From positions 128,487 to 192,486 of the forward strand of contig JAPLME010000007.1 in assembly GCA_026387175.1 (NCBI GenBank): 64,000 nt of DNA, in the 5' to 3' direction. This DNA comes from Candidatus Omnitrophota bacterium (GTDB taxonomy: Bacteria; Omnitrophota; Gorgyraeia; 2-01-FULL-45-10). Below the pieces are notes generated by a model. It saw only the letters and a list, made by a program, of their open reading frames with translations. It ran no database searches and was not told the origin of the DNA. The first letter of the stretch is position 1. Every line of letters begins with the position of its first letter. This document shows, piece after piece, positions 85-58,216 of this stretch. A program made the position numbers and the translations under genes.

Positions 85-435
85 TCAGCCTGTTATCTCG
101 GTAAGGTTTTCACCGTCGAAATACAATTTCTGGGTTTTGGATAGATATCCGGCATCTACCGGTATCACGCCATATTGGGCATTATATGTCCATACTTCTC
201 TGGGCGAAGACCATTTCTTTTTGTTCTCAACAGTGGTTACCTGATCGGGTTTTCCCCATATCGATTCAACCTGATTTTTTGTCATACCGATCTTCACCGA
301 TTCTGTGCCCAGAGGTTTTTTTATAATCTCATTGGGGTTTGGGATCATCAGCGTACTGCAGCCGCATAGCAGGGGCAGCACCGATATAATCATTATGAAA
401 GACAGGCTCTTCGCCGGGTTATTAGATCTTCGCAT
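85..435 (-). CDS. Outer-membrane lipoprotein, BamE/SmpA_OmlA-like
   Basis: Signal peptide ending in lipobox LLCGC. Motif GMTKNQVESIWGKPD is typical of the BamE/SmpA_OmlA fold. Confidence 0.5.
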   Translation of the reverse strand: MRRSNNPAKSLSFIMIISVLPLLCGCSTLMIPNPNEIIKKPLGTESVKIGMTKNQVESIWGKPDQVTTVENKKKWSSPREVWTYNAQYGVIPVDAGYLSKTQKLYFDGENLTEITG

Positions 436-817
436 TCCTTGGTCCCTTCTTTATGGTGTAAATAAGATCGCACAAAAATTTAAGAAAAGTATTCTTGTTA
501 TCTTCCTCTATTTCTGTGAATTCCAGGCCGCAATCGTATGGCGCTGTATCTTCCAATGAGATCTTTCTCTTCCAGATAACTTTTGCTTTAGCGTGAACGG
601 GACTTAGCGCGTCTCGTATCACCATCTTGATCTCCAAAGTATCCGATTCCTTTATCGCGTTATTGAGCGTTTCGAACCTCAGGCCGTCAGCCGAAATATT
701 CTTGGTATTTGTATTAAGCACCTTTCCTGTCTCAGGCACTGTATATGAGATATCTATAGGCGTATCTAACCTGACATACCGCCGGCGTTCAATAAAACTA
801 TCTTTTGTTTTTCCCAT
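422..817 (-). CDS. PilZ domain protein (c-di-GMP receptor)
   Basis: RxxxR motif (ERRRYVR) followed by the N/DxSxxG motif (NISADG). About 130 aa single-domain protein. Confidence 0.7.
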   Translation of the reverse strand: MGKTKDSFIERRRYVRLDTPIDISYTVPETGKVLNTNTKNISADGLRFETLNNAIKESDTLEIKMVIRDALSPVHAKAKVIWKRKISLEDTAPYDCGLEFTEIEEDNKNTFLKFLCDLIYTIKKGPRNAKI

Positions 818-3677: not shown

Positions 3678-4046
3678 TTATGCCGCTTTCTTTCTGGCTA
3701 TGTAACCGGCGATGATCTCCCTGGCTCGCGGCTCCAGATCTGTATCAAAAAATATTGCGACATCGTAGTGTTTGGTCGCTCCGTCAATTATCACCGGGTG
3801 TGTTCTGACCACTACGCCTTCCACCTCTACGCCCTTTGCCTCTTTGTCGTTTTTGGACGGATCGGGGATCATCAGCATAAGTTTCACGCGGGACATCAGC
3901 GGTATTTCCTTATCCACTTTGCAGTAAAGTCCCGATGAGCTTATATTGATGGTATGGGTAGAGGTGTCAAATCCGCCGACGATTATCTTAAGCAGCAGTT
4001 CCTCGTCTTTTACCCTCTGAGCTATTCTTCTCTCTTGACTTGCCAT
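3678..4046 (-). CDS. PilZ domain protein
   Basis: RxxxR (ERRIAQR) and NISSSG motifs. Start codon is immediately preceded by a copy of the repeated leader element. Confidence 0.65.
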   Translation of the reverse strand: MASQERRIAQRVKDEELLLKIIVGGFDTSTHTINISSSGLYCKVDKEIPLMSRVKLMLMIPDPSKNDKEAKGVEVEGVVVRTHPVIIDGATKHYDVAIFFDTDLEPRAREIIAGYIARKKAA

Positions 4047-4056
4047 TTGTCCGTAC

Positions 4057-4111
4057 TCCTAGTTTATTAAGCCATACTGTCTGCCAAGTGCCGATATCCC
4101 TGATATCGGCC
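4057..4111 (-). repeat. Repeated leader element, copy 1 (hairpin GCCGATATC-CCT-GATATCGGC at 4090-4110, plus SD)
   Basis: Near-identical 55-nt sequence found at 6 sites. Ends in AGGAG 9 nt before the ATG of 3678..4046. Confidence 0.85.
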
Positions 4112-6911: not shown

Positions 6912-7265
6912 TTATGCCCTGTCAAGTATCTTCAACCACTGCAAATAAGTATATTCTAAAAGCCTTCCCCTGTCTGAATTATCGATCTTTGTGAACTTCA
7001 AACCCGTCTCATATGGGCCGGAGCTACCTGAGCCTTCCTGCTGCCACGCCACCTGGCATGCGGCAAATATCGGCACATTATCACCCGGCACGTCCACTGA
7101 GAGGTTTATTTCGGCGCCCTGTCCAAATCTCTTGTCGGTCAATACGAGAGCGCCTTCACTTGATATATTCTTAACTTTATACGATCTCTTGCATTTTTCG
7201 CTTACGATCTCGCATAACGCGTTTAACGCGGTATCGAACCTTAAGAATCTTCTTCTCTCGTTCAC
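6912..7265 (-). CDS. PilZ domain protein
   Basis: ERRRFLR (RxxxR) and NISSEG motifs. Confidence 0.65.
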   Translation of the reverse strand: MNERRRFLRFDTALNALCEIVSEKCKRSYKVKNISSEGALVLTDKRFGQGAEINLSVDVPGDNVPIFAACQVAWQQEGSGSSGPYETGLKFTKIDNSDRGRLLEYTYLQWLKILDRA

Positions 7266-7774: not shown

Positions 7775-8146
7775 TCACTTCTGCCTTCGTACCTTCAATA
7801 TCTCATCAATGATATCGGATATCTTATCCCTATCCTCGGGCCTTATATCTATAAATTCAATGCCGGTGTCGTAATAGTAAGATCCCTTCTGCTTGGGATC
7901 GGTTTTCTTCACGACCCATACTAATGTGCCGCCGCACTTTATCTGGGGGCCTTTTTCGTCTATGAAGAGCTCTACGTCTACACCTTGAAAAAGACCGAGA
8001 TCCTCTTTCAGTAAAACGCATATGCCGCCCGCGCCGATGTTCTCCGTATGGGTCGATATGGTTTTAGCCGTCAGCCTCTTCTTTATGGATATGAGGCATT
8101 TATAGTTTGCCCTGGGAAACCTGCGCCTGTTGATACCATTCCACAT
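7775..8146 (-). CDS. PilZ domain protein
   Basis: NRRRFPR (RxxxR) and NIGAGG motifs. Confidence 0.65.
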   Translation of the reverse strand: MWNGINRRRFPRANYKCLISIKKRLTAKTISTHTENIGAGGICVLLKEDLGLFQGVDVELFIDEKGPQIKCGGTLVWVVKKTDPKQKGSYYYDTGIEFIDIRPEDRDKISDIIDEILKVRRQK

Positions 8147-11555: not shown

Positions 11556-11611
11556 CTCCTAGTTTATTCAGTCGTATTGCAGGCTAAGTGCCGATATCTC
11601 TGATATCGGCC
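11556..11611 (-). repeat. Repeated leader element, copy 2 (hairpin 11590-11610)
   Basis: Same 55-56 nt consensus. Loop is TCT/AGA instead of CCT/AGG. Confidence 0.85.
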
Positions 11612-36935: not shown

Positions 36936-36991
36936 CTCCTAGTTTATTCAGCCGTATTGCAGGCTAAGTGCCGATATCCCTGATATCGGCC
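36936..36991 (-). repeat. Repeated leader element, copy 3 (hairpin 36970-36990)
   Basis: Same consensus. AGGAG lies 8 nt upstream of the patatin gene ATG. Confidence 0.85.
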
Positions 36992-41036: not shown

Positions 41037-41291
41037 TTACTTTAAAGCAGCTTGTAAATTCTGCATCTCCCTCAACAATATCTGATACAACTCTATGGAA
41101 GATTTAAGGGCCCATAACGTAAAAATAATTGTTAGCGCGGTAAGGACTATCTTTTGCCAACTTTTGAAGGCAGGGCTGATCCAGACCATAGGTATAGCGA
41201 ATGGCCCGATGCCGATTATCGCTATCAATATTACCGCGGGTTTCAGATACCACTTAACCGTCTTTTTATCAAGCTGGACATCCGGCGCCAT
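41037..41291 (-). CDS. Small membrane protein
   Basis: Two predicted TM helices. 84 aa. Confidence 0.35.
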   Translation of the reverse strand: MAPDVQLDKKTVKWYLKPAVILIAIIGIGPFAIPMVWISPAFKSWQKIVLTALTIIFTLWALKSSIELYQILLREMQNLQAALK

Positions 41292-42474
41292 AAAGGCCTT
41301 TCGTGTATGACTTCTGTTCTTTCAATGCCAGGGCTATGTCTTTTTCCGCCGTAAACCCTAGCTGCGTCAATATATCACCCAGGAGCATTCCTCGTCTCCA
41401 ATGGGTCGTAAGGGCCTCGTCCAGTTTTTCGGCTGTTATCATCTTCCGGTCCAGCAGGATCTGCCCGAGAGGCTTGTAAGTATAACCCTCACCGGTATCC
41501 GGCTTAAAGACATGCGGCGAGCGGCGGGCCTCCTTAGGACCGGTGCGCCTGTCGGCCATGTATTTTGATCCCGTAAGGGCCTTGAGATAGCGTTTCACTT
41601 CCGCTATCTTTTCATTTATCTCTATTACATTCTTAAATTTTTCATCTTCGCCGCTGTTCACCACAGCTATCGACACGCTGACCAGAGGTATGTTCTTTAT
41701 CTTATGGTCTCTGGCTCGCGCAACTACATAGCCGCGGGAACGGTCTTCTTTATTATAGTGGAACGGCATTACCATATTGAATGCCGCGATGAAGTTCTGG
41801 CATATCGCGGCATGTTTATCGGGAGTGGTGATAAACGCGAAGTCATCCCCTCCTATGTGCCCTATAAAATCGCCGCTATTACCGAACTTCAGTATTGTCG
41901 TGTAGAGCATATAGGCCGTTTGCATTATGACACGGTCACCCTGCAGATAGCCGTACATATCGTTGAAATATTTAAAATTGTCCAGATCCAGATATCCGAA
42001 GGAAAAGGCCTTACCGTCCTTTAGCCTGTCGCGCAGGTTTTCTTCGATGAGCCTTCCGCCCGGGAGCCCTGTAAGAGGCATTGAATAGAAGCTGTATTGC
42101 AGGCGTTTTATTGCCATCTCGACGCGCACCCTCAGATCAAGTGGATCCGGAGGCTTTATCAGGTAATCGTCCACCCCCTGTTTGATGCTCAAGAGATGCC
42201 CGCGAAGCTGTCTTTTATTGATAAGGGTTATTACCGGAATGTAGGCCGTAATGAAATCGCTTTTAAGGAGCCCGCATATCTCCAGATCCATATGCTTTGC
42301 CGCGTGAACATCGATCACTATGACGTTAGGCGAGATCTTTTTTATAGGCGTGACATCATGTACCATCGTTTCGAAAAGGATAACCTGATACCCCCATCCG
42401 TCGAAGCAGAATCTCAACACTTCGCGCAAATTTTTATCGGATGATATTATCAGGATCTTTTTCGGCTGGTCCAT
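41269..42474 (-). CDS. Response regulator receiver - GGDEF(GGDDF) - MshEN (T2SSE_N-like c-di-GMP binding) domain protein
   Basis: REC domain with phospho-acceptor Asp (VIVIDV). GGDEF domain whose signature reads GGDDF. C-terminal LGQILLDRKMITAEKLDEAL...GMLLGDILTQLGF resembles the MshE N-terminal c-di-GMP-binding domain. Confidence 0.7.
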   Translation of the reverse strand: MDQPKKILIISSDKNLREVLRFCFDGWGYQVILFETMVHDVTPIKKISPNVIVIDVHAAKHMDLEICGLLKSDFITAYIPVITLINKRQLRGHLLSIKQGVDDYLIKPPDPLDLRVRVEMAIKRLQYSFYSMPLTGLPGGRLIEENLRDRLKDGKAFSFGYLDLDNFKYFNDMYGYLQGDRVIMQTAYMLYTTILKFGNSGDFIGHIGGDDFAFITTPDKHAAICQNFIAAFNMVMPFHYNKEDRSRGYVVARARDHKIKNIPLVSVSIAVVNSGEDEKFKNVIEINEKIAEVKRYLKALTGSKYMADRRTGPKEARRSPHVFKPDTGEGYTYKPLGQILLDRKMITAEKLDEALTTHWRRGMLLGDILTQLGFTAEKDIALALKEQKSYTKGLYGAGCPA

Positions 42475-43062: not shown

Positions 43063-43118
43063 CTCCTAGTTTATTAAGCCCTATAGCAGGCTGAGTGCCG
43101 ATATCCCTGATATCGGCC
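43063..43118 (-). repeat. Repeated leader element, copy 4 (hairpin 43097-43117)
   Basis: Full element with AGGAG SD 8 nt before the LemA ATG. Confidence 0.85.
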
Positions 43119-43170
43119 TAGTTTATTCAGCCATATTGTATGCTAAGTGCCGATATCCCTGATATCGGCC
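43118..43170 (-). repeat. Repeated leader element, copy 5 (tandem, hairpin 43149-43169)
   Basis: Directly abuts copy 4. SD is degraded to AGGCC. Confidence 0.85.
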
Positions 43171-44836: not shown

Positions 44837-44892
44837 CTCCTAGTTTATTCAGCCATACTGTATGCTAAGTGCCGATATCCCTGATATCGGCC
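44837..44892 (-). repeat. Repeated leader element, copy 6 (hairpin 44871-44891)
   Basis: Same consensus immediately upstream of 44105..44836. Confidence 0.85.
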
Positions 44893-52994: not shown

Positions 52995-55900
52995 TTATGC
53001 GGCGGTTATAACCGCTTTGGCATGCTCGTATATCTGTCTTAATTCTTCCGCGTCTATAGGTGTAATCGGCAGGAGTTTTATCAGTTTCTTTAAGGAGGCG
53101 ATTATCTTATTAATATCGCCTGTTGCGAGGGCAATAATATCGTCCGAGGTAAGGTTAAAATTCTTCAGGTCGTTTGCATCACATACGTTTTTCAACTCTT
53201 CCAGTATCTCCAGCTGTATCTTGTCTTTGAAAGCTTGATCTCTGGTTATATCGATTCCCTTCTCCTTTATCTCTTGCGCAATATCCATCATCTTTAATCC
53301 CAGTATGGTTGCCCTTATTAGTCCCGCGGGATCGTTCTGCAGGCCTATGGGAGAAAGAATAGTATCCTCAGTCTTTACATTGAGATTTCCAAGCCTTGAA
53401 CGAATAGCGGCCTGGTCGAGCTCTTCGCCTTTAAGAGCCGGGAACAAGGTAATGGTATTTTCCCTCGTCCGTTTAAAGTCTTTCGGTAGAGGCTTCTTTT
53501 CTAAGCCGTATCTCTGATATATGCTTTCGCTCACCTCTCCCGTGCCTGACATGTAGTAGAATTCCACATGCCCATTGGGTGCTTTTTGGAATATCGTGAG
53601 GAAGTTTTTGATATTATCCGTGTTTATGGATTCGACAGCCTCTATAGGAACTCTCACTAGAATATTTTGTTTATCGTCACTGAGCAAGTCCTTAATAAAT
53701 ATTTTGTTTTTATCAATGTAGGTGCTTTGATCTTTAGCTGTAACCGTCCTCCCCTCCTTTGAACTATTAGTTATATTACCTAGTGGCGCTGCAGGGGGCA
53801 ATAACCTAACGATTAAGTGATTGCCTTTAATTGTTATAGGCAATCCATGAATATCTTCTGTTCTCTCTAGCTTTTCAACAAGAGATTTGAATAAATCCTC
53901 GCGCTGTTCTTTTGGTATGCTCTCAACATCTGTATCTACTATGAACATATCTGCTTCCGAACTTTGCTTAAAATAATTTTCAGCGGCCAAAGCGATAAAT
54001 TTGAAGAGCTTGGCTACCGGTACGTATGAATAGCCTCCTGCGTTGCCTTTGGTTATGCCAAAAAATAAAGACGTCTCTCTTACTTCAATACGGCTATTCC
54101 AATTATGGTAGAATGATTTTCGCGTTTCTTCAGGCAGTATTTTTTCTATCTCTTGTTTTAATCGCCCAAATTCGTCATCGAACAATTCCGCCCCATATCC
54201 TTTTCTTGCCAATTTCCTTAATCGATATTCATAATATCTTTCTTCTTCATCTAATTGTTCTATTTTCTCGCGGTCAGCAAATTCCAAAACATCTCTTAAA
54301 ACCGACGGAACCAAATTATTTCGGGTACCCTCATCAGTACCAGTGCCATATCCTGCCATATCCATGGCATTAACTATGCAAAGAATCTTCAGAAATTCAT
54401 CAGGGAAGCCTTTCAATAGACGCGGGACCTTCTTCCCCCTGATAATGTTCCCCAGAGTGTCGTGATGGGTTATTATCCTGCCCACTTCGTCGATAATGTT
54501 TTCTGACGCTACTTCGTCTTTTAATGCTTGAAGCGCCAATTTTGCGCCACGGATAGGATGGTCGGCGTCGCTGACATTTTCTTCCGTATATCCGATATCG
54601 TGCAATATGACGGCCATTATTAAAGCATCTTTCTGCCCGTCTGCCAGCATAGAATAGAAGCCGTATAATTTTTTAATACCCCCGGCATATTCTATTCTGC
54701 TTTCTTTATCCGCCAATTCGAATTTCTTTCCTTTGGTGCGATCGCACAATGTAGCATAGAAATAATCAAAATCCTTATTAATCAATCGGTTAAGGCATTG
54801 GATAACCATCAAAACATGCTCCAATTTATACGGCACGGGCCCCTGGGAATAATCGATCTCCGGAAAAACTTTTGCGATATGCTCTCTGAGTCCTGAAACA
54901 CTTATGGCCTTATTATCTTTTATGTACTTAACCAAAAGATCCAGCTGAATTTTGCGAGATGCATCATTTTTAAACGCTCCATCCGCTGAGGGTCTTGCCT
55001 GAGGCGAGATTGCCATGGTTATTTGTTCAATAAGGCTTTTGCGAATTTCTTTAATGTTGTCGGGGTGCCGCCTTCCCTCCTCAACCCATTTCTTCCACTG
55101 ATCAACATGCTCCAGAAGGATTCTGATCACAGCTTCCTTGAGCTTTTCATCGAGTGGTACCGATGGCTTGATTATGTTCCTGTTTTGATGAAGACTGTAA
55201 ATCATTAATCGGACCCGGTAAGGATCCGTCTCATTAAATACCACCCTGAATATTCCCAAGGCAGATTTCATTTTCTTAAATTTCTCCGCATAGTTTTGTA
55301 TGAGTGCGGTTTCATCAAATCTACTATTCTCAAAGGTGGGTGATAGATTACAAAGAATACCATCGCTAATTCCTTTATAAATAGCGATGAAATCCAGATC
55401 GCTTTTTTTAATTTGTTTGTTTAATTCCTTAAGAACATCGTCCTTAAAAGGGTTAAAAAAATTATAGGGCGATTTTGAAACTACAATTTCTTTTCCCTTT
55501 GAATCCCGGTTATAATATTGCTGCGCAATAAACATATGATTTCGCCAAATCAAAAACTGCGAACGGAAATTATCAGAGCTTTCAAATTTTGGATGGGAAA
55601 GAAAAACATCGGAAATCATGGCTTTTTTCAAGCCGCTAAGCCAATATCTGTAGCCGATGTCATTTTCGTCTGAAAACATAAAGAGCCTGGTATCAAATCC
55701 GCCGATAAGTCGGAACATGTCTGCTCTCACCAATTGAGCCGTTCCCATCATCGTAGGCTCTTTATAATAAAGATTGGGCGCGGCTTTCACTAGAGACTCT
55801 CCACTTCCTTCTAAAAGCGTTTTAATAAATTTCGATGTGTACTCTTCTGCTCTTTGCCGTTGTTCGGGCAAAAGATCGCCATCGATGGGAACCTTCTCAT

Positions 55901-58040
55901 TAGCATTAAAAACAAATATGCTCGGTTGAAGAGCGCCTATCTCGGGACGACCTTTTATGGCATTCACCATTTTCTTAAGCCCGTCGCTTTCAAGACGAGC
56001 ATCATTATTGAGAAAGAATACGTAATCGCTGCTTTGCTTTAAAGCGATCCGGGCCGCTTGATTATTTCCACCCGTGTAACCCAGGTTCACTCGGTTTGTA
56101 ACAAGTTTAATCCTGTCTTTCAATTTTTCAGCGCTTGATAATGGAAGACGACGAAGGAGGTTTTTAAAGTTACTATTGAAATGCTTCGAAAATTTATCAG
56201 GGGAATTGTTATCCACGAGGATTATGTCGAAATTATCATAGGTTGTATGGGATAAATTTTCAAGGGCTCTAAGCGTTTGATCCGCGGAGTTGCCGTAATG
56301 TAAAATAACTACGGAGACCTTTGGATTATCTTTCAGCTGCTCATGGGGTCTCGCATGGCTCAAAAACCATTCGAGGTCTTCTTGTAAATACCGCAGCGCA
56401 TCCGCATCTTCATTAAGGGGAGTCATTAGCTCTATTCTTTGTTTTATAATCCCTGCAGTTCTTGGATCATATTTTTCAAGTTTTTTAATTTTATCCAAGA
56501 TATTTGCAAAAATCGGATTCTCTGTCGCCAATTGTGCATCTTTAGATACGTTCTGTTGCGATAACCATTTTACTCGATGTATGATCTGTCTATTCAATCG
56601 GGGGCTTATAACTTTCGTTGAAAGCTTCGCTATATCAGCGTACGGGGTTATAACATTAGCTTTCGTAGGATCAAAATAGCGAACGGCCAACCCTTCGTTC
56701 GGAATTTCGATGATAATTTCATTGAGCAATACCTTTACGCTAGGGTTCTTTTTTTCTACCTCAGAGTAAAACATAGCGTTATTTAATGCCTCAACATGAA
56801 AATTATTGGTCAGCTTCCATTTAGAACCGCTTTTTCCCACTGATCCAGAACGTCGCACCACCTCCTCGACGATCTTTAATGCCCTATTAACATTGCCGCC
56901 CTCTTTACCCATTTCTCTTCTTGTTATTTCAAGAAAATCCCTGAAGAATATCGAAGCGTTCTGGCGGATAAGCTCCTTTATCTCAGGAATAAAATAACAT
57001 TCCGGATCGCAATTCTCCAACAGTTTGCCCAACATAAACTCCATTATGTCTGTCTGTTTTGCGCGACGTCTTTCTGTATGACTTAAAACAACCTTGACAC
57101 GGTTATTTATCTCATCATCCTCACTGCCTGTATCACTATACATTTTTGTGTCGAAATATTTTTCAGTGATTCCTGGTTCCTTCCTGTGATTTCGTCTATA
57201 GGTTCTTGTCGTCTCAACAAGCTTTTCCTGATCTATCAATTGATCATATGTATCGGCATCGCGAACTAATAACGCCTCGATGCTATCGGGTTTAGGAAGA
57301 TTTTCCTGACTCTCATTTATATAGCCTTTAGGATAATCTTTTACCCGATAATTCACTGGAGTGCCTCTGTGAGATCTTATGATATGCTTAACTCTGTCTA
57401 TGCGTGTTGCAGGCCAGTCCTTGTCATGCCAATCCTCTAAAATCTTACCAATAAATCCGGCGCCTTCCTCGTGATGCCCCAAACGTGTTTTAATGCCTGT
57501 GGAGCCAAGCCCTTTGATATCATGCGTAAAAGCCCCTATGGCAAGGGCTTCTCTATCTACTTCGAAATTATAATATTCTGCCCATTCAAAAGCTTTCTTA
57601 GTAACATCTATTGCATGGTTAAAACCATGCACGGGATCCGTATGAAAAACTATAAATTCATCGGTAGATAGCTTCGTTTCCAATTCTTCTATTATTCGTT
57701 CTAAAATTTTATATGGAACATTGGAATGAAGGAAGGTCGTTCTTATTGTTTCGATTTTCTGACGAGTTATGTCTTTTTTATCAGACATCTTATTTGGTAA
57801 TACTGCTACAGCGTCAGGATTCTTTTCCGTGTCTAACCTGGCTAATACATCTCTCAGATATGATTTATCATCGAGATTACCGTCATGTTCGATGTGTTTG
57901 CATATCGCGCCTACGGTGAAGGAGTATTTAAAGTCTTCACTGTTAAGTCGTAATTCGGGCGCCAGCTTATTATTTTGGTCTGCCAGGCAGAGAGAAGATA
58001 GAAAAGCTCCTATGAGAATAACTGCGAGGGCCTTCTTCAT
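52995..58040 (-). CDS. Giant (about 1680 aa) signal-anchored multidomain protein: HD - GT2 glycosyltransferase - HD
   Basis: HD1 (HGFNH...FTHDIKG...RDADTYD). GT2 (VSVVILHYGNS...DIILVDNNSPD...FFLNNDA). HD2 (ILHDIGYTEE...HHDTLG). About 450-aa C-terminal region of unknown function. Likely start MKKALAVILIGAF (signal/anchor); track start is 15 codons upstream (GTG). Confidence 0.7.
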   Translation of the reverse strand: MKKALAVILIGAFLSSLCLADQNNKLAPELRLNSEDFKYSFTVGAICKHIEHDGNLDDKSYLRDVLARLDTEKNPDAVAVLPNKMSDKKDITRQKIETIRTTFLHSNVPYKILERIIEELETKLSTDEFIVFHTDPVHGFNHAIDVTKKAFEWAEYYNFEVDREALAIGAFTHDIKGLGSTGIKTRLGHHEEGAGFIGKILEDWHDKDWPATRIDRVKHIIRSHRGTPVNYRVKDYPKGYINESQENLPKPDSIEALLVRDADTYDQLIDQEKLVETTRTYRRNHRKEPGITEKYFDTKMYSDTGSEDDEINNRVKVVLSHTERRRAKQTDIMEFMLGKLLENCDPECYFIPEIKELIRQNASIFFRDFLEITRREMGKEGGNVNRALKIVEEVVRRSGSVGKSGSKWKLTNNFHVEALNNAMFYSEVEKKNPSVKVLLNEIIIEIPNEGLAVRYFDPTKANVITPYADIAKLSTKVISPRLNRQIIHRVKWLSQQNVSKDAQLATENPIFANILDKIKKLEKYDPRTAGIIKQRIELMTPLNEDADALRYLQEDLEWFLSHARPHEQLKDNPKVSVVILHYGNSADQTLRALENLSHTTYDNFDIILVDNNSPDKFSKHFNSNFKNLLRRLPLSSAEKLKDRIKLVTNRVNLGYTGGNNQAARIALKQSSDYVFFLNNDARLESDGLKKMVNAIKGRPEIGALQPSIFVFNANEKVPIDGDLLPEQRQRAEEYTSKFIKTLLEGSGESLVKAAPNLYYKEPTMMGTAQLVRADMFRLIGGFDTRLFMFSDENDIGYRYWLSGLKKAMISDVFLSHPKFESSDNFRSQFLIWRNHMFIAQQYYNRDSKGKEIVVSKSPYNFFNPFKDDVLKELNKQIKKSDLDFIAIYKGISDGILCNLSPTFENSRFDETALIQNYAEKFKKMKSALGIFRVVFNETDPYRVRLMIYSLHQNRNIIKPSVPLDEKLKEAVIRILLEHVDQWKKWVEEGRRHPDNIKEIRKSLIEQITMAISPQARPSADGAFKNDASRKIQLDLLVKYIKDNKAISVSGLREHIAKVFPEIDYSQGPVPYKLEHVLMVIQCLNRLINKDFDYFYATLCDRTKGKKFELADKESRIEYAGGIKKLYGFYSMLADGQKDALIMAVILHDIGYTEENVSDADHPIRGAKLALQALKDEVASENIIDEVGRIITHHDTLGNIIRGKKVPRLLKGFPDEFLKILCIVNAMDMAGYGTGTDEGTRNNLVPSVLRDVLEFADREKIEQLDEEERYYEYRLRKLARKGYGAELFDDEFGRLKQEIEKILPEETRKSFYHNWNSRIEVRETSLFFGITKGNAGGYSYVPVAKLFKFIALAAENYFKQSSEADMFIVDTDVESIPKEQREDLFKSLVEKLERTEDIHGLPITIKGNHLIVRLLPPAAPLGNITNSSKEGRTVTAKDQSTYIDKNKIFIKDLLSDDKQNILVRVPIEAVESINTDNIKNFLTIFQKAPNGHVEFYYMSGTGEVSESIYQRYGLEKKPLPKDFKRTRENTITLFPALKGEELDQAAIRSRLGNLNVKTEDTILSPIGLQNDPAGLIRATILGLKMMDIAQEIKEKGIDITRDQAFKDKIQLEILEELKNVCDANDLKNFNLTSDDIIALATGDINKIIASLKKLIKLLPITPIDAEELRQIYEHAKAVITAA

Positions 58041-58216
58041 TAATTTGTGGAGATATTTATGTAATCCTAAAACAATCATATACACAAGTATAGCATATGA
58101 TTACGTTAAATCAATACAAAGTAAGATAACTTTTTTGAGTTTTAACTTGGGTGAATGTAAAAGCCGTATGGGACGTTTAAGCATCCCCTACGATTGTGGA
58201 TAACCATAGCGCTGCG

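Follow-up and report, generated by a model that had tools for sequence, protein, structure and literature searches.

We analyzed a stretch of 64,000 nucleotides from a Candidatus Omnitrophota bacterium (GenBank assembly GCA_026387175.1, contig JAPLME010000007.1, positions 128,487 to 192,486), hereafter the window, focusing on a gene at positions 41269..42474 of its minus strand which encodes a protein of 401 amino acids (aa) plus a stop codon. This protein joins in a single chain a receiver (REC) domain, a GGDEF-fold nucleotide cyclase domain with the variant signature GGDDF, and a C-terminal MshEN_N domain, i.e., the four-helix part of a known receptor module for cyclic di-GMP (c-di-GMP). The reading that we favor, and which we hold with roughly even confidence, is that of a phospho-activated diguanylate cyclase whose tethered MshEN_N domain senses the product of the enzyme itself, as a feedback. 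An earlier note, made from the sequence alone, had proposed the fusion of a cyclase with a sensor for c-di-GMP, its product, and this remains the best reading. All of the parts are of known kinds, and no published description of their combination was found in the literature searched.

The gene (hereafter the cyclase gene) is one continuous open reading frame (ORF) with an ATG start and an AGGAAG-like ribosome-binding site upstream, and a scan for promoters and terminators around it returned counts at chance level. All features within it lie on the minus strand. The encoded protein is 100% identical to a 'diguanylate cyclase [Candidatus Omnitrophica bacterium]', an NCBI protein from a metagenome-assembled genome, and is encoded identically by three independent read-set assemblies. 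The signature GGDDF (residues 208-212, 41839..41853) follows the invariant H206, is spelled by the codons gga ggg gat gac ttc (41853..41839), and was present in 120/120 sequences of the homologue alignment from which all conservation counts of the family are taken. The signature given in the earlier note was therefore confirmed by direct reading, and the sequencing error that it had considered was ruled out by the three identical assemblies and the invariance of the motif. The three-domain chain that it had described was likewise recovered, far beyond chance, by profile searches and by phmmer matches to the PDB. An AF2 model of the whole protein, built on 61 homologues (mean pLDDT 81), consisted of a (beta-alpha)5 receiver, a disordered joint at residues 128-135, the GGDEF fold, a linker, and four helices at residues 336-391. 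The linker (residues 313-334, about 22 residues, 41473..41538) is poorly conserved and was modeled with a pLDDT of about 60-67. By strict membership the protein is filed as REC - GGDEF (H-x-GGDDF clade) - MshEN_N, as it lacks a GG(D/E)EF signature, an RxxD site, a strict MshEN motif I, and the MshEN_C subdomain.

The receiver domain spans residues 5-125 approximately (42100..42462). It was matched by Pfam Response_reg at residues 7-118 with 26.2 bits, just under the gathering score of 30.2, and by NCBIfam response-regulator models, of which those of PleD, PhoB, and DgcR gave E-values of 1e-14 to 1e-18. Searches of the PDB retrieved PleD, DgcR, MtrA, and PhoB by sequence (phmmer) and the REC domains of PhoB and MtrA by fold (Foldseek, TM 0.8-0.88). 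The phospho-acceptor D55 (42310..42312) is found in all of the 120 homologues, as are K107 and Y104, followed by D13 (115) and T83 (104), and the first acidic residue of the acidic pocket is replaced by Ser12.

The GGDEF-fold domain (residues 133-312, 41539..42078) belongs to a clade with the signature H-x-GGDDF and was identified by Pfam, TIGR00254, and AF2/Foldseek. The match to Pfam GGDEF (PF00990) covered residues 133-230 with an E-value of 1.4e-13 and was partial (profile positions 5-104 of 161), while TIGR00254 scored 46.3 bits against a cut-off of 37.4. The domain was modeled with a pLDDT mostly of 80-94, and Foldseek matched it to WspR, PleD, DgcR, and isolated GGDEF domains with target-length-normalised TM-scores of 0.6-0.77. 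It carries an extra beta-hairpin insert after helix 3 (residues 249-263 approximately). The signature departs from the canonical [G/A/S]G[D/E]E[F/Y] by the Asp at position 4. Yet D163, D165, K168, N171, D180, H206, GGDD, K294, and K298 are invariant in the homologues, and D163, K168, N171, and D180 (each 120/120) align to D327, K332, N335, and D344 of PleD. Hence the metal-binding Asp, the catalytic Lys, and the guanine-specifying Asn and Asp are all kept. An RxxD I-site, located five residues upstream of the GG, is common among cyclases but not obligatory. Here this position reads NSGD (residues 199-202, 41869..41880) instead of the canonical RxxD, and the Arg position (-9) is occupied by Asn in 113/120 family members. 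The alignment of both sites that the earlier note had advised thus gave a divided answer, with the A-site residues kept and the I-site replaced, and judging from these residues the loss in this protein concerns the allosteric I-site and not the active site. Since the specificity residue D180 is invariant, the predicted substrate is GTP and the predicted product c-di-GMP. Another product (cGAMP or oligoadenylate, by analogy with Hypr GGDEF or Cas10 GGDD proteins) is unlikely given the invariance of N171 and D180; in the wider clade the equivalent of D180 is Asn or Ser in 14 of the 48 members captured by the pattern.

This wider clade was surveyed by an exhaustive search of 1.84 billion representatives with residues 125-401 as query, which retrieved 396 representatives below an E-value of 1e-30. 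Of the best 150, 144 had GGDDF, which nearly always took the form H-(I/V)-GGDDF. Across 96 divergent members of the clade, the metal-binding Asp, His-x-G-G-D-D, and a C-terminal Lys were invariant, and the Lys and the guanine-specifying Asn were conserved in at least 90%. The I-site Arg was retained in only 5/95. The domains found as partners in the 96 members were REC (42), HAMP (31), and EAL (only 15), along with CBS, PAS, and GAF. These are the partners of active cyclases, which supports the catalytic competence of the clade.

The C-terminal part of the protein carries two 24-residue MshEN_N motifs, i.e., motif I (residues 335-358, PLGQILLDRKMITAEKLDEALTTH, 41401..41472) and motif II (residues 364-387, LLGDILTQLGFTAEKDIALALKEQ, 41314..41385). 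They are separated by the five-residue spacer WRRGM (residues 359-363, 41386..41400), and the spacer of Vibrio cholerae MshE has the same length (PMC5013675). Both motifs fall within a match to NCBIfam NF053729 ('cyclic di-GMP-binding domain, MshE-related') which covered 53/53 positions with 51.2 bits against a cut-off of 38 (E 7.9e-14), and a phmmer search of the PDB with the last 89 residues retrieved Thermus thermophilus PilF (best E 6.6e-15), V. cholerae MshE (5HTL), and PilB N-domains. The spacer length and the score above cut-off bear out the MshE-like motif pair that had been suspected. The earlier note had assigned this likeness to a region of about 90 residues; the likeness holds, and the size does not, as the domain comprises 53 residues preceded by the linker of about 22 residues and followed by an unconserved tail of 14 residues (388-401, 41272..41313). 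The tail occupies the place of the MshEN_C/T2SSE_N1 alpha/beta subdomain, which is absent, so that instead of the full MshEN module that had been envisaged only its four-helix MshEN_N half is present. The Pfam MshEN model (PF05157) gave no match to the protein even at an E-value of 10 because it covers the missing C-terminal subdomain, and the silence of this T2SSE_N/MshEN profile, which had been proposed as a check, is not evidence against the motif.

When residues 326-401 were modeled alone (76 residues), AF2 produced four helices with a pLDDT >90 over the bundle. The top Foldseek matches were 9GLG, 8PFA, 5HTL, and 8PDK (0.7-1.0 Å over 56-58 columns, Foldseek probability 1.00), and all 12 best fold matches in the PDB were MshEN-type domains. 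The E-values of these matches were only 0.014-0.09, which is explained by the shortness of the domain. The structures on which the bundle was superposed include the c-di-GMP-bound forms of PilF GSPII-B and MshE (5HTL). In MshEN domains of known structure, the backbone amides of Gly 3 and of the next residue bind the Hoogsteen edges of the guanines, Leu 2, 17, and 21 form two clusters stacking on the bases, position 1 caps a base, and Gln 24 binds the ribose-phosphate (PMC5013675, PMC11731258). The contact residues L2, G3, L17, and L21 are kept in both motifs of the window protein, with Ile at position 17 of motif II. In motif I, P335, G337, and L355 are present in all of the homologues, L351 and H358 in 119, and L336 in 113; in motif II, G366 is found in 120/120, and position 1 is R, L, I, V, or M. 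The Leu-cluster positions are conserved in at least 94/120, and non-contact positions vary freely (e.g., turn residue 344 is K, N, or G). Isolated N-subdomains are sufficient for binding, with dissociation constants (Kd) of 54 nM for PilF and 0.35 µM for MshE (PMC11731258, PMC5013675). Taken together, the conserved contacts suggest that the MshEN_N domain of this protein likely binds c-di-GMP.

When homologues are clustered at 90% identity, more than 120 clusters align with the 401-aa protein over at least 93% of its length and are at least 60% identical to it. All of them are 385-438 aa long, and all of the named ones derive from Omnitrophota. The database names retrieved for this form of about 400 aa were 'diguanylate cyclase', 'GGDEF domain-containing protein', 'response regulator', and 'hypothetical protein'. 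About a dozen of the best 150 representatives in the clade search were longer, at about 480 aa; their alignment extends through the motif pair, and they match Pfam MshEN at residues 392-480 approximately. Judged by these alignments, they are REC-GGDDF-full MshEN proteins, and the window protein is a short form of that architecture. A scan of GTDB (one genome per species) recovered >592 H-x-GGDDF loci. Among those aligning through the MshEN part, all taxon-named ones belonged to Omnitrophota, the one exception being an 'uncultured bacterium', whereas Chloroflexota, Elusimicrobia, Actinomycetota, Planctomycetota, Eisenbacteria, Clostridia, and others had only the REC-GGDDF core of about 310 aa. 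The MshEN fusion is therefore limited to Omnitrophota among the genomes sampled. As a separate observation, two Chloroflexia loci encode, a few kb from the REC-GGDDF gene, a distinct ORF (L022:3621-4478 and L010:2923-3348, both on the minus strand), part of which was matched by a hidden Markov model of the Omnitrophota MshEN_N region at E-values of 1e-6 to 1e-7. The ORF of L022 is a DUF4388 protein, and DUF4388 may thus contain an MshEN_N-like bundle.

In the mechanism that we propose, phosphorylation of the receiver at D55 would lead to dimerisation, which would pair two GGDDF domains so that two GTP are condensed into c-di-GMP, with the Asp at signature position 4 acting as catalytic base in place of Glu. 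In this enzyme without RxxD, the flexible linker of about 22 residues would tether the 53-residue four-helix bundle, which would hold one c-di-GMP through the backbone amides of both Leu-Gly pairs and through two leucine clusters, in the manner of MshE, PilF, and NfrB. The tethered sensor would then report the product to the enzyme that made it, most likely as negative feedback that renders the output self-limiting, and the c-di-GMP would be read by PilZ-domain proteins, a STAS-PilZ protein being encoded next door in many relatives. Negative feedback is the usual solution among cyclases. Control of the enzyme itself appears to be the most economical role of the bundle because the short form carries no further output domain, and the sign and the route of the feedback are the most conjectural elements of the proposal.

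As to the route, the product brake of this I-site-less cyclase in Omnitrophota might be the tethered MshEN_N domain with the product itself serving as a molecular glue that plugs the A-site, a specific version that we consider doubtful. MshEN_N would grip the Hoogsteen edges and faces of the guanines, leaving their Watson-Crick edges exposed. In a full MshEN, an Asp of MshEN_C contacts one Watson-Crick edge, and that Asp is absent in the short form. N171 and D180 of the A-site would read the same Watson-Crick edge, so that the bound nucleotide could dock there. If true, this feedback mechanism would differ from cross-linking through an RxxD I-site, and MshEN_N would be seen for the first time to regulate the enzyme that makes its ligand.

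The points that weigh against a feedback-controlled cyclase are taken here in the order of its steps. For the receiver, no histidine kinase gene was found adjacent to the cyclase gene in the window or in the related loci with gene content examined, so that its product is an orphan response regulator. For the cyclase, no assay or structure was found for this family or for any H-x-GGDDF member of verified clade membership, and PA3258, a GGDDF/EAL protein, displayed no cyclase phenotype (as cited in PMC8835794). GGDDF might then be catalytically dead and the protein a phosphorylation-dependent receptor or adaptor for c-di-GMP made by other enzymes. Consistent with this, Asp is shorter than the Glu which at signature position 4 acts as the cross-dimer catalytic base (PMC8835794), Bordetella DdpB (GGDDF with EAL) has no demonstrated cyclase activity either (PMC12805831), R366 of PleD is replaced by His in the window protein, and in two related loci (L033 and L092) an adjacent GGDEF-domain protein could supply the c-di-GMP. 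However, degenerate receptor GGDEF domains typically lose the A-site and keep the I-site, and the opposite is seen here; moreover, a clade found in many phyla shows no variation in its metal, phosphate, and guanine ligands, and few of its members (the 15 of 96 given above) have an EAL partner. In addition, the GGDDF domain of GSU1937 made cyclic dinucleotides in vivo and lost this activity as GADDF (PMC8835794). A dead cyclase is on this evidence improbable, and the 'possibly degenerate cyclase' of the earlier note is unsupported, GGDDF being an invariant hallmark of the clade. Because the pattern of catalytic residues fits an enzyme and not a degenerate receptor domain, GGDDF is probably not a dead motif, and the domain looks catalytically intact.

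For the sensor, both motifs were compared with the strict consensus RLGxx(L/V/I)(L/V/I)xxG(L/V/I/F)(L/V/I)xxxxLxxxLxxQ, the check that had been advised for this region. Motif I deviates from it by P for R at position 1, K for the turn Gly at position 10, and H for Q at position 24; of these, positions 10 and 24 also violate the relaxed pattern given in PMC5013675. Motif II has L at position 1, T at both 7 and 12, and I at 17; it agrees with the extended (R/K/L) consensus given in PMC11731258, and it ends in Q387 (position 24), which is kept in only 60/120 homologues. His at position 24 of motif I is also found in PilF GSPII-A, which does not bind c-di-GMP and in which the individual effect of this residue was never measured (PMC12002112). 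Together with the precedent of XpsE, an MshEN fold that lost binding (PMC5013675), these deviations would fit a degenerate MshEN_N bundle that does not bind c-di-GMP and acts as a structural or dimerisation element or as a receptor of another ligand. We regard this as very unlikely, since both Leu-Gly pairs and the Leu clusters are conserved while structural non-contact positions drift, and since the binding-motif model of NCBIfam scores above its cut-off. Motif I begins with PLGQILL as in Escherichia coli NfrB, a proven binder with a Kd of 1.0 µM (PMC8669469), in which the turn Gly and the final Gln are missing too; PLGQ occurs likewise in Pseudomonas aeruginosa PA14_29490, another proven binder. 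Motif II begins with Leu like that of PilF GSPII-B, which binds with a Kd of 6 nM; Leu at position 1 raises affinity in PilF, where L196R (motif II) and K167R (motif I) lowered and K167L raised it (PMC11731258). In the long-form relatives, His and Gln alternate at position 24 of motif I, which argues for their functional interchangeability.

For the feedback, the whole H-x-GGDDF clade lacks RxxD, and most of its members have no MshEN, which argues that the fusion is not a necessary replacement of the I-site. From these distributions it looks like a lineage-specific gain of c-di-GMP sensitivity by a feedback-less cyclase. The cyclase could also be active with MshEN_N acting as an output or scaffold that hands c-di-GMP to a partner (STAS-PilZ, or a secretion or pilus component), or with positive feedback that creates a bistable switch. 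We examined 20 related loci with usable flanks within a radius of 3 kb, and c-di-GMP genes (PilZ or GGDEF/HD-GYP) were present in 11/20 and PilZ genes on the same strand in 9/20, a neighborhood that also speaks for the mechanism proposed above. In five loci, with short- and long-form genes alike, an orthologous STAS-PilZ gene (240 aa) lies directly downstream or upstream, within about 60 nt of the cyclase gene, and other PilZ genes were found in four further loci. PilZ genes appear abundant in these genomes, and the neighborhood signal may be partly due to chance; for this reason more weight is given to the close STAS-PilZ adjacency. Besides this adjacency, the output or scaffold role is favored by the long-form relatives, which keep MshEN_C/T2SSE_N1 (described in the literature as mediating protein interactions in secretion ATPases), by the composite protein/c-di-GMP surface proposed for PilF (PMC11731258), and by the precedent of DgcJ-NfrB for physical coupling between a cyclase and an MshEN effector (PMC8669469). 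On the other hand, in the short form only the 53-residue bundle itself could carry an output, and the STAS-PilZ adjacency is limited to about a quarter of the loci, the window not being one of them. An output or scaffold role, or positive feedback, seems to us rather unlikely, though it is the likeliest of the rival readings, ahead of a dead cyclase and of a bundle that does not bind.

The window protein resembles PleD (Caulobacter), WspR (Pseudomonas), and DgcR (Leptospira) in its N-terminal receiver with a phospho-acceptor Asp followed by a GGDEF fold. These are its best sequence and fold matches in the PDB and share its metal-binding, Lys, and guanine-specifying residues. It differs from them by H-x-GGDDF in place of R-x-GG(D/E)EF, by the lack of an RxxD I-site, and by the beta-hairpin insert and the C-terminal MshEN_N, and the identity is only about 20%. 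With MshE (5HTL), PilF GSPII-B (8PDK), and NfrB it has in common the two 24-residue motifs, the five-residue spacer, the Leu-Gly pairs, and the Leu clusters. Unlike in these proteins, the module is C-terminal and resides on an enzyme predicted to make its ligand rather than on an ATPase or glycosyltransferase; it also lacks MshEN_C/T2SSE_N1 and has an invariant His at position 24 and Pro at position 1 of motif I. Like the GGDDF domain of GSU1937 (Geobacter sulfurreducens, Hypr-GGDEF), which indicates that GGDDF can support synthesis (PMC8835794), it has no EAL or HD-GYP partner. GSU1937 differs by a Ser at the specificity position (cGAMP), where the window protein has the invariant D180, and by a membrane-bound N-terminal region. 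GSU1937 and PA3258 are compared with it by the GGDDF motif and not by membership of the H-x-GGDDF clade. E. coli DgcJ-NfrB is similar in that a cyclase is physically coupled to an MshEN-type receptor sensing local c-di-GMP (PMC8669469), but it consists of two proteins with a glycosyltransferase output, whereas the window protein is one polypeptide with no separate output domain.

Two architectures in the portion of the table of Wang et al. 2016 covered here come close to parts of this arrangement. Bdellovibrio Bd2402 (REC-MshEN_N-UNK) has an MshEN_N without MshEN_C beside a REC domain, and Myxococcus MXAN_7396 ((MshEN_N)2-REC-ACyc) has MshEN_N with REC and a nucleotide cyclase. The latter differs from the window protein in that its cyclase is a class III adenylate/guanylate cyclase, which does not produce the ligand. 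No GGDEF-MshEN combination is listed in that portion of the table, and in the material retrieved from the rest of the supplement 'GGDEF' occurs only in headers of the receptor-count table. Literature searches for GGDEF-MshEN architectures and for the strings HIGGDDF and HVGGDDF returned no papers.

Two rules of thumb in the annotation of c-di-GMP genes are challenged by these results, namely that a signature other than GG(D/E)EF denotes an inactive cyclase, and that MshEN is an N-terminal sensor of secretion or pilus ATPases or of glycosyltransferases. H-x-GGDDF emerges as a signature conserved in a large GGDEF clade, uncharacterised and present in many phyla, that is I-site-less and apparently catalytically intact, and one uncultivated phylum appears to have captured in it a minimal 53-residue c-di-GMP receptor. 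If this tethered receptor controls the enzyme, it would offer a compact and testable model of product feedback without an I-site, and the protein would be a likely central source of c-di-GMP for the PilZ and STAS-PilZ receptors that abound in Omnitrophota. Annotation based on Pfam misses the MshEN_N sensor entirely. The fusion is of interest to specialists of c-di-GMP signaling and is directly testable, without being revolutionary.

Upstream of the cyclase gene the window contains a TPM-domain gene and then LemA, and downstream an 84-aa ORF, NYN_YacP, ribosomal protein S21, and a double M16 peptidase, all of them on the minus strand. The 84-aa ORF (41037..41291, minus strand) has two predicted transmembrane helices and no Pfam match, and overlaps the end of the cyclase gene by 23 nt. 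An 84-aa ORF is kept directly downstream in relatives of 70-81% identity (L087 and L088) and is not family-wide. The gene order around the cyclase gene is preserved only in close relatives, and a conserved operon was ruled out by the presence of at least three distinct synteny groups. The first, to which the window belongs, consists of LemA, the cyclase gene, the 84-aa membrane protein, NYN_YacP, S21, and the M16 peptidase; the second of the CCA-adding enzyme, the cyclase gene, and STAS-PilZ; and the third of the cyclase gene preceded by a GGDEF-domain gene, which is PAS-GGDEF-HD-GYP in the case scanned with Pfam. The two loci with a second GGDEF-domain gene directly upstream are L033 and L092 as named above, and in L033 this neighbor is a PAS-GGDEF-HD-GYP protein with a full-length Pfam GGDEF match. 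In L088 a 188-aa DHH/DHHA1 protein (L088:4431-4997), which may be a nanoRNase or a pGpG-type phosphodiesterase, is inserted directly upstream of the cyclase gene.

The STAS-PilZ genes of the five loci are located at L002:9230-9952, L089:6224-6946, L007:7442-8161, L071:4723-5442, and L094:6197-6952. This conserved Omnitrophota STAS-PilZ family carries the motifs RRRFKRLP and N-L-S-x-x-G and is a candidate downstream receptor through which c-di-GMP would act on a module of the partner-switching type. In the window, four small stand-alone PilZ proteins are encoded at 0.4-8.1 kb, an unusually dense set, all on the minus strand: 422..817 (Pfam PilZ 48.7 bits), 3678..4046 (27.2 bits), 6912..7265 (53.9 bits; ORF open to 7328), and 7775..8146 (53.0 bits). 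Their presence indicates that the organism has c-di-GMP receptors. No other GGDEF gene was found in the window.

In an ORF of 1696 aa elsewhere on the minus strand (52995..58085), an HD domain is N-terminal (residues 155-281), a family-2 glycosyltransferase domain follows at residues 591-720, and Pfam leaves about 1,400 residues unmatched. The HD domain was ruled out as an HD-GYP phosphodiesterase by the absence of the GYP motif. Finally, a perfect palindromic hairpin of 21 nt (GCCGATATC-CCT-GATATCGGC) occurs in six copies in the window, all in the same orientation and apparently between ORFs (4090-4110, 11590-11610, 36970-36990, 43097-43117, 43149-43169, and 44871-44891), against a chance expectation of 0.01; one of the copies has a mismatch in the loop. 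Two copies lie in the 138-nt spacer between TPM and LemA, just upstream of the LemA and cyclase genes. The element looks like an REP-type extragenic repeat or an RNA hairpin.

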